A stretch of 64,000 nucleotides of DNA from NCBI RefSeq assembly GCF_003334385.1, contig NZ_QOWN01000003.1; one strand, written 5' to 3'. Position numbers and translations under genes: made by a program. The DNA comes from Escherichia coli. Its GTDB lineage: Bacteria > Pseudomonadota > Gammaproteobacteria > Enterobacterales > Enterobacteriaceae. Shown piece by piece: positions 18,285-21,200 of the stretch; within the stretch, counting starts at the first letter, position 1; every line of letters starts with the position of its first letter. The notes below the pieces were generated by a model. The model was given only the letters and a program-made list of their open reading frames with translations, did not search any database and had not been told where the DNA came from.

Positions 18285-21200
18285 TATCCCCAATCCAGCC
18301 CTTGTGGCGAACTTGAAAATCCCGCCTCACGCAGCAGCGTAAACATCGGCGTTTGCCGGACCGGTAGATCATTCACTTCTGTTAGCGTAAAGCGCAGCCG
18401 TGGTTCGCGACGCAGTGCGGTAGTCAGCGCGTGGAAAACCTCTGGGGCGAGTAATTCCTCTTTTTCCTGCCAGACCAGCATTTTTTTGCCACCTTGCGCC
18501 AGATAGAGTAACAATTTGCCGCCAGAAACGACCACCAGCGCACCCGCCCGACGCGTTGGAACCAGCGTTGCCGGATGTGCAGGCCAGGGCAGAAGATTTC
18601 CCCACACATTAGCCGGATCGTTGGCAGAGAGCGCCACTGGTGTATAGTGGCGCGTTTGCGTGGCTTGTGTCGCCAGATCGCGCAATCGGTCAATAGTCAG
18701 ACGTTCAGCGAATTGCGCGCCACCCAGACCTTCTACAAAACGACCTCGCATAATTCGCCCGGAGTCTTCCATACTTCGACAAAGCGTTTGCATCGATGGA
18801 AACCCGCCAGGGATATTTTCGGCTATCACCGCCTGACGACTGATGATGCCGTAGCGGTCGAGCATATTTTCCGCCAGCGCCAGCATCCTTTCGGTATCGT
18901 TTAGTGGCTCCACCTGCAATAACGACCAGCGTCCAGCCAGATTTGGTGTGTTGTAAGATACCCGCGGCGAGACGGGTTGCGCATAGACAGGACGTCCACG
19001 ACGAGCCCGGTGACTGCGGCGAGTTGAGGTGCGTGCGTTGGAACTGCTGCGGGTGAGGGCGCGTAACGGTGCCCAAATGTCGCTGGTGATGACGCCTTGC
19101 CAGACCAGCGCCCATAACGCCTCTTGCAGGGCAGAGAGATCAACCGATTCGCCGATTTTGTCGCGTATCCGTTGGCTGATTTGTTGTGCAAACCAGGCTC
19201 CTCCGTCAGCCAGAACAGCGACTATCGCTTGTTGCAGCGCCGAACGATTCGCCTGATCCGCTTCGGCGGGAGTGAACGATTCTGCAGCATATTCCTGTAG
19301 ATGCAGTGCCACCAGGCCGTCATCTTCACCCAGTTTTTTTGCCCCGACCAGATAACCGCACCGGTTGCCAGTAATTCATCGAGCATTTCTGACGAATAGT
19401 CGCGTACGCGGGCAGGCAGGATCTGGCTTTCCCAGAGTGAGGCGGGTAAACCGACTCCGGCAAGCTGTTCGATCACCCGCATCACGCCATCTACGCCCTC
19501 ATAAACGCCTGGCGATGTTGAGGCAAAGAGCGCCGGGCTACCATCGGTGGCGGGTAATACGCCCTGACGTTCCAGCAGCAATCGCGCATAGGTCGTGGCT
19601 GCAACGGGACGCGTCGCTTCTCTGGCGGCTTGCAGCGAGCGCAAACGCAGACGACGAAATACTTCATCGCTCACCCAGATGTCTTGTTGCAGATTCATCA
19701 CCAGACCCTGTTCACGCAGTTGCTGAAGCTGCTCTTCGACAATGGCAATACCGAGACTAAACTCATGAGCCAGTTGTTCAGCCGTGACCAGAGCATGAGC
19801 CCGGAGATAGCGCAGAAAGAGGTCGCGAAGCGGGTAACTGACTCTATGTAAATAAATCTCTGGCAATGACTCTGGTAGTCGTACGCCGAGGGCATCACGC
19901 AGCCTGGCGGCATCATCCATACAGGCAAGACGCTCCTGTCCGCTAATCATCGCTGGGAAGATTCGTTTTACTGCAAGAAGATTTTCCAGATACGACGCAA
20001 CCTCTTCACTGCTGCCTGTATGCCGTTGCGCCAGGTCTTCAACGGTCATTGGCCCCAGTTCGCGCAGCAGGTCGAACAATCCTTCTTCACCTTTCGCTCT
20101 TCTGCCAGGAGCCAGTCGTTGCAACTCTTCTTCCACCTGGCGAATGACCTGCGGGTCGAGTAATTCCCCCGGATCGACCTGTCCGAGTAGATTGCGCAGT
20201 AACTCGCTGTCCAGCGACAGTACGGATGCCCGGCGCTCTGCCAGCGGGGCGTCGCTCTGGTACATAAATTCCGCGACATAGCCGAACAATAAACTTGTGG
20301 CGAAAGGCGAGGGCGTAGTGGTCGTTACATCGGATATTTGAATTTCGCCACCGTTCAGGCGACGCATCAAACGTTCCAGTGCGGGAAGATCATAAACATC
20401 TTGCAGACATTCGCGTAGGGTTTCGAGAATGACCGGAAAATCCGGATATCCCTGAGCGATTTCCAGCAACTGACTGGCGCGCAGCCGTTGTTGCCAAAGC
20501 GGGGTGCGATGGCCCGGAGTGCGCCCCGGCATTAATAATGCCCGCGCGGCGCATTCGCGAAAACGGGCGGCGAAAAGTGCCGAGCTGCCTACCGCCTCGC
20601 GGACAATTTGCAGCAACTTTTCTGGTTCAAACAAAAAAATCGCGGCATCGGGCAATTTACCATCGGTGTCAGGAATACGTGCAACAATGCCGTCATCACT
20701 GGCGACCACCGACGCGTCAGCGCCCCATAGCGCATGTATTCGCCCGGCAATCGCCACCGCCCAGGGTTCATGCACCCGTCTTCCATAGGGAGAGTGCAAA
20801 ATAATACGCCAGTCACCAATTTCATCACGGCACCGTTCGAGGACCAGATGGCGACTCCCCGGAACGATGCCCGTCGCGTTGCGCTGCTCCTCAATCAACC
20901 CCTGAATATTGGCGATCGTATTTTCTTCTGCCAGCCACGGGGGAATAGTCCCGGAAAAGAACGCGCCATCCGCCAGCAAATGAAGAAAATCGCCGATCAT
21001 CTCGCCTAATTCAGCCGGACGTCCGTTACCTTCACCACGCCAGAAGGGGAGCCGGGCAGAACGACCCGGAGCAGGAGTCACAATCACCTGATCGCGGGTG
21101 ATTTGCTGGATCCGCCATGAGGTAGCGCCGAGAGTGATAATGTCGTTCACCCGCGACTCATATACCATCTCCTCATCCAGTTCACCCACCCGCCGCGAAC

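Follow-up and report, generated by a model that had tools for sequence, protein, structure and literature searches.

Is the lhr gene of this Escherichia coli strain genuinely broken, or was a single base lost in the making of the assembly? The question is raised by a stretch of 64,000 nucleotides (contig NZ_QOWN01000003.1 of assembly GCF_003334385.1), here called the window, in which the gene for the helicase Lhr, lying on the minus strand, is broken by a 1-nt deletion in a run of A residues on the coding strand. A preliminary description of the window had reported lhr to be split into an open reading frame (ORF) of 1225 aa (22899..19222) and one of 342 aa (19312..18284) in different frames, and we found the coordinates, sequences and lengths all to be correct. 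It had offered two explanations, a pseudogene or an assembly error, both of which do occur at the lhr tract in public data. The evidence presented below goes beyond that choice and favours a real A7 allele in the lineage of the window. The parts of the gene that are needed for the argument are the following.

18284..22899, minus strand: the whole of lhr, 4616 nt in the window against 4617 nt in the intact gene; a frameshifted pseudogene or truncation allele.
19222..22899, minus strand: the 5' ORF of lhr, 1225 aa with an ATG start, consisting of native residues 1-1188 and 37 out-of-frame residues, with the stop codon at 19224..19222.
18284..19312, minus strand: the 3' remnant ORF of lhr, 342 aa with a GTG start, in the original lhr frame and corresponding to native residues from about 1198 to 1538.
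19334..19340, minus strand: the homopolymer tract, with seven A on the coding strand (A7; T7 on the plus strand) where A8 is normal; the site of the 1-nt deletion.
19333..19340, minus strand: the A7 run with the C that follows it, the last seven bases of which (19339..19333) form the in-frame heptamer A_AAA_AAC (codons CAA AAA AAC).

On the coding strand the region of the tract reads ...TCGGGGCAAAAAAACTGGGTGAAG..., where the seven A residues occupy window positions 19340..19334, and the minus-strand codons are ...ATC TGG TCG GGG CAA AAA AAC TGG GTG AAG ATG... The last native residue is K1188, and codon 1189 is changed from AAA to AAC in the A7 allele. From there the 1225-aa ORF continues as ...SGQKNWVKMTAWW...CNKR*, its full ending being AVIWSGQK-NWVKMTAWWHCIYRNMLQNRSLPPKRIRRIVRRCNKR, and the other frame reads ...KKLGEDDGLVALHLQEY... 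on to ...SPQGLDWG. It had been proposed in the preliminary description that one extra A would rejoin the two frames into a protein of about 1538 aa. Insertion of one A in silico gave a 4617-nt ORF encoding exactly 1538 aa with the end ...SPQGLDWG, and only one residue, N76 against D76, sets the repaired protein apart from the intact Lhr of PEC399. Alignment to an intact lhr, which had been suggested as a check, showed that the relatives carry A8 and an intact gene for 1538 aa. The A8 gene is annotated as intact with a length of 4617 nt by the NCBI pipeline in PEC399, 58-3, 81, A65EC and 503025, every close relative that we examined has an intact lhr, and the same pipeline labels the A7 gene a 'frameshifted' pseudogene in other genomes. 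In the comparison with relatives, the change from T8 to T7 at 19334-19340 is the only indel inside lhr. The gene thus shows what is expected of a homopolymer-slippage pseudogene, i.e. a run that differs by one base from that of intact orthologues in a gene that is otherwise collinear with them.

For quantification of the normal state of the tract, queries of 95-97 nt, with which only an exact match reaches 99% identity, were run against 5426 complete RefSeq E. coli genomes. Between identical 44-nt flanks the tract is A8 in 2970 complete genomes, A7 in 19 and A9 in 9, the last group including CDC#03-98, E148, N61 and Z1323CEC0015. The frame-breaking alleles A7 and A9 are therefore carried by 28 of the 2998 genomes with identical flanks (approximately 0.9%), some of these being assembly errors. 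Since the allele differs from the normal one by a single base, it is to be judged by comparison with relatives and not by chance expectation. It is clear from 2970 genomes against 19 that A8 is the normal state and that the two-ORF form with A7 is rare and derived. A conserved two-ORF arrangement, which the preliminary description had named as grounds for abandoning its interpretation, is not what the genomes show. Since both A7 and A9 are seen, the tract is a hot spot for one-base changes in both directions. None of the 5426 complete genomes is identical to the window, and the nearest one has approximately 6 mismatches and an indel over 24 kb, as estimated from the bit score.

The split gene can also be followed in wider public collections, because gene callers report a 211-aa ORF with a TTG start (18919..18284) for the 3' fragment only when lhr is split. 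The index of the public collection lists this 211-aa fragment in 3286 blocks, and A7 was present at all of the sampled loci that carry it (10 of 10). In 1733 of the 3286 blocks the longest contig is 20-50 kb; the majority of the public occurrences of split lhr thus lie on contigs of 20-50 kb, which are typical of short-read assemblies.

Evidence that concerns the allele of the window directly comes from read sets. Four read-set (Logan) assemblies each contain a contig that encodes exactly this truncated protein of 1225 aa, and the one of these four contigs that was retrieved, from run ERR1948963, matches the window with 100.000% identity across 23,678 bases, A7 included. The match covers the window single-nucleotide polymorphisms (SNPs) at 12891, 17127, 17622, 28349 and 28390, and the same five SNPs separate the window both from PEC399 and from the A8 contigs that were retrieved for this Lhr protein haplotype. 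A7 is thus linked to SNPs that are unseen in the nearest sampled A8 relatives, as would be expected if the mutation was inherited. The support for A7 consists of assembled contigs. The length of the contig, 37.5 kb, is close to the distance from a tRNA-Val pair to the repeats in rsxC, which would fit a short-k assembly of accurate reads. Within rsxC (window 42891-43411) off-diagonal matches to PEC399 were seen at multiples of 96 bases with 88-91% identity, indicating an internal tandem repeat array near the expected end of such 37.5-kb short-read contigs.

Over the 64 kb, 21 substitutions and two indels, one in the lhr tract and one in uidB, distinguish the window from PEC399. The 23 other runs of seven in the window and its single A9 run (37660-37668) all match the relatives. 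A signature of long-read error was not seen in the window, where the lhr tract is the only homopolymer discrepancy in 64 kb. The A9 run, located between dtpA and gstA, is the longest homopolymer of the window and can be regarded as an internal control for homopolymer under-calling; it is intact here and A8 in strain ETEC1734. The identity of the ERR1948963 contig with A7 and the five SNPs, together with the absence of an error signature, makes it most likely that the deletion is real and inherited. On these sequence comparisons we are close to confident that the 1-bp deletion is present in this strain, and we consider a genuine, inherited slippage deletion from A8 to A7 that truncates Lhr to be a highly probable explanation of the observations as a whole.

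Replication slippage in an A:T run would have shortened the lhr tract from A8 to A7. The rate of indels in E. coli is known to climb exponentially with homopolymer length (PMC8510543). In the A7 allele translation would depart from the native frame after K1188 and halt 37 codons further on, so that at most a protein of approximately 1225 aa could be made. In a Pfam search with the part of an intact Lhr from residue 800 to 1538, DEAD_assoc extends to about residue 867 and the winged-helix (WH) domains WH2, WH3 and WH4 occupy residues 912-1016, 1130-1206 and 1334-1416. The frameshift trims the end of WH3 and removes all that lies beyond it; 350 residues are lost and 77% of the protein remains translatable. 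Pfam assigns DEAD, ResIII, Helicase_C, WHD_Lhr and DEAD_assoc to exactly this product of 1225 aa, and it hence possesses the N-terminal helicase core of superfamily 2 (DEAD/Helicase_C, winged helix and DEAD_assoc). It also keeps WH2 and most of WH3, and is devoid of WH4, the terminal module and Asp-1536. Both WH4 (1334-1416) and Asp-1536 are encoded in the 3' remnant ORF, and thus only in the detached frame. Since its C-terminal domain is not contiguous, the product cannot be classified as a full-length Lhr.

Previously the Lhr Core (877 aa, residues 1-877) has been shown to be an autonomous monomeric ATPase and translocase, and the C-terminal domain to drive oligomerisation and to improve duplex unwinding (PMC8053096). 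Lhr has furthermore been reported as a uracil-DNA glycosylase that needs Asp-1536, and lhr deletion mutants as sensitive to peroxide and mildly sensitive to azidothymidine (AZT) (PMC10953399). Because Asp-1536 is missing, the product of the A7 allele is predicted to be without uracil-DNA glycosylase activity. It would be a glycosylase-dead helicase with a 37-residue basic tail, likely impaired in oligomerisation, if it is stable at all. By analogy to the published deletion of lhr, the cells would be no more than mildly sensitive to peroxide and AZT. Strains with A7 may then be looked upon as natural 'helicase core plus partial C-terminal domain' mutants devoid of Asp-1536, and they could be used for studying how the helicase and the glycosylase of Lhr divide their labour in vivo. 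A separate expression of the 3' fragment is unlikely, since the only starts are GTG and TTG, no Shine-Dalgarno sequence is evident and no match to a minus-strand promoter was found.

Several points weigh against an inherited deletion. The four runs could represent one isolate that was re-sequenced, or the source reads of the window itself; the retrieved contigs with the 1225-aa product amount to one of four; and some public assemblies demonstrably have A7 in error, the site being error-prone on homopolymer-sensitive platforms. The strain could accordingly be truly A8 with an intact lhr, one A having been dropped in base-calling or in the consensus at the lhr tract, the longest coding homopolymer in the region. 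A clear case elsewhere is ETEC1734 (NZ_CP122801.1, 'complete' in RefSeq), which over 39 kb is separated from the window by only 13 SNPs and has the same contraction of lhr from A8 to A7. In this genome ribE is also contracted from A6 to A5 and annotated as frameshifted, and the A9 run is contracted to A8 at window 37668, so that three contractions fall at positions matching window 9196, 19334-19340 and 37668, all within 39 kb. Riboflavin synthase is encoded by ribE, an essential gene, and the three contractions are almost certainly assembly errors from systematic homopolymer under-calling. Another genome from the same project, ETEC1738, has A7 on a background that is approximately 1.8% divergent and a frameshifted ydhV, and this one sequencing project accounts for 5 of the 19 complete genomes with A7, on at least two unrelated backgrounds. 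Among GenBank assemblies with A7 the long-contig ones L013 and L017-L020 show further homopolymer deletions within 10 kb, whereas L012, L014-L016 and L021 are clean. In the window, however, the 64 kb hold no second homopolymer discrepancy and the A9 run is kept, the A7 haplotype has been assembled from a separate read set with 100% identity over 23.7 kb, and the split gene is in public data mostly found on contigs of the size expected from short reads. We consider it improbable that the A7 of the window arose in this way. More generally, real mutations and long-read errors look alike at the A8 tract of lhr, and a call of A7 or A9 therefore needs support at the level of reads; homopolymer frameshifts in records such as ETEC1734 are unreliable without it.

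If the allele is real, the split could still be functional rather than a loss. Slippage among A7, A8 and A9 might toggle the C-terminal module, or a leaky A7 allele might yield useful full-length Lhr, either by a -1 ribosomal slip on A_AAA_AAC or by RNA polymerase slippage that adds an A, and lineages would in that case tune the ratio between a helicase-only and a glycosylase/oligomeric Lhr instead of losing the gene. Such a switch would agree with the occurrence of both A7 (19) and A9 (9) in approximately 3000 genomes on many backgrounds, and the A7 allele does create a zero-frame X_XXY_YYZ heptamer (CAA AAA AAC) on which, as read from the codons, a P-site slip of -1 would restore exactly the wild-type Q-K-K-L. 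Against it, the tract is A8 and in frame in approximately 99% of the genomes whose flanks are identical, showing that the split state is not maintained. The downstream RNA (96 nt from the tract) folds at -23.5 kcal/mol, where shuffled sequences average -26.05 (z = +0.85), i.e. no structure beyond chance, and the sole upstream G-rich element lies 1 nt from the heptamer, where the spacing of the upstream element in dnaX is roughly 10 nt. Nor is the run conserved within the genus, as Escherichia sp. E1V33 has the in-frame CAAAAAAAG (CAA AAA AAG CTG, A7G). This was the only relevant match when species-representative genomes were scanned for the coding motif G-Q-K-K-L-G-E-D-D, with no other genus found in what was a strict scan that misses divergent orthologues. 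A run of seven or eight is short for efficient transcriptional slippage, and lhr is not a gene of the surface or restriction type usual for contingency loci. Programmed recoding was rejected because there is no downstream RNA structure and neither a promoter nor a convincing start context for the 3' fragment; among the three properties of a programmed -1 site the slippery heptamer is present, and the downstream structure and the two-frame conservation (two of three) are not. The frequent on/off variation that defines a contingency locus is likewise not seen among the complete genomes, where off alleles occur in 28 of 2998. A toggled or usefully leaky lhr is in our opinion very unlikely, and any read-through would be background noise for which a function is hardly to be expected. 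We therefore keep to an inherited deletion that truncates Lhr.

The surroundings of the gene contain two further features.

22992..23639, minus strand: rnt (RNase T), intact, directly upstream of lhr and co-oriented with it, as taken from the ORF list and from the annotation in relatives.
18247..18276, no strand assigned: a GC-rich hairpin with a 12-bp stem between the convergent lhr and grxD.

The neighbours of lhr, with rnt upstream and the convergent grxD downstream, are the same as in annotated E. coli relatives. The hairpin is probably a terminator shared by lhr and grxD. With lhr standing at the end of its transcription unit, nothing downstream could suffer from the frameshift, and polarity is not expected.

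Loss of lhr is by no means restricted to the A7 allele. With a sensitive blastn search the 3' part of lhr was found in 4382 of the 5426 complete genomes and is deleted in 1044, where the rnt-grxD interval is approximately 1.7 kb compared with 6.1 kb and short remnants are annotated. In LF82 (L011) the counterpart of window 18284-22899 is reduced to positions 2302-2530; lhr is almost wholly deleted and its remnants are two tiny partial genes annotated as 'endonuclease' and 'ATP-dependent helicase'. Absence of lhr has been reported as specific to phylogroup B2 (Touchon et al. 2009, Table 5; PMC2617782), and an lhr::kan strain is viable and has served as a neutral linked marker (PMC3045373). The gene is dispensable, and its loss in natural isolates is not unusual. 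The A7 allele is probably a real but ordinary mutation that inactivates lhr at a hot spot of a familiar kind. Its biological weight is small, as it adds one more case in which a repair gene that the cell can do without decays at a homopolymer in its coding sequence.

The second indel of the window is located in uidB (57723-59095), which is frameshifted into the ORFs 57723..58193 and 58085..59095 by a lesion at 58145-58149. Here the reference sequence CCACAATCCCGCGCCC-GTCT-GGGCGCGGCTCGTGG is replaced by CCACGAGCCGCGCCC-GTCT-GGGCGCGGCTCGTGG in the window, and the left arm created by the change is exactly reverse-complementary to the right one. As judged from the sequence, two substitutions and a 1-nt deletion would have arisen in one event that bears the signature of a template switch in a quasi-palindrome. 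The lesion lies outside homopolymers and is identical in five complete genomes, and the index of the public collection lists the resulting 156-aa uidB fragment in 171 blocks, on several backgrounds. All five genomes with the uidB lesion carry T8 in lhr. The use of the uidB frameshift as a clade marker was rejected, since these five sharers are 67-123 SNPs away over approximately 49 kb and PEC399, without the lesion, is only 21 SNPs away over 64 kb. In strain 81 (L007) copies of IS1A are present beside hdhA and inside uidB-uidC (window approximately 53880 and 58780-60010). The latter removes the 3' end of uidB and part of uidC, and constitutes a second, independent lesion in the glucuronide transport genes on top of the uidB frameshift.

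How does the A7 allele of lhr compare with systems that are already known? The nearest example of functional recoding is dnaX-type -1 frameshifting, which combines the heptamer A_AAA_AAG with a Shine-Dalgarno sequence before it and a stem-loop after it. Both have an in-frame A-rich X_XXY_YYZ heptamer at the point where two overlapping frames meet. Unlike that of dnaX, the lhr heptamer ends in C instead of G and is accompanied neither by a downstream structure nor by a correctly spaced Shine-Dalgarno sequence, and the two-frame arrangement of lhr is rare and derived. Homopolymer contingency loci, as found in Haemophilus, Neisseria and Campylobacter, resemble lhr in that a change of the run by one base in either direction switches the frame off and that both variants are seen. 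They differ from lhr, where the run is short (8) and unconserved within the genus, the off state is found in approximately 0.9% of genomes, and the product is a cytoplasmic repair enzyme.

At the level of the protein the obvious comparators are the laboratory constructs EcoLhr-Core (aa 1-877) and Lhr D1536A (Warren et al. 2021; Buckley et al. 2023). The predicted product of the window resembles a Core with an extension, in that it has the motor and is without Asp-1536 and part of the oligomerisation domain. In contrast to the Core construct, which ends at residue 877, its native part ends at residue 1188 and keeps WH2 and most of WH3, and it is predicted to carry an arginine-rich out-of-frame tail of 37 aa.

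Among natural isolates, the deletion in phylogroup B2 is similar to the window allele with respect to the loss of Lhr function. It is different in that approximately 4.4 kb are gone, with remnants of about 230 bp left between rnt and grxD, and in being fixed in a large lineage. The closest counterparts are the lhr pseudogenes annotated as 'frameshifted' in RefSeq, for example those of strain 730V1 (ID627_RS11610), ETEC1734 and ETEC1738, which have the identical A7, the same premature stop and the same gene length of 4616 nt. They stand on other backgrounds, 4 to 169 SNPs away over approximately 8-11 kb, and some of these A7 calls are probably assembly errors, whereas the call in the window is backed by an independent read set. 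Since the same allele is annotated as frameshifted in RefSeq, the lhr allele of the window counts as already known.

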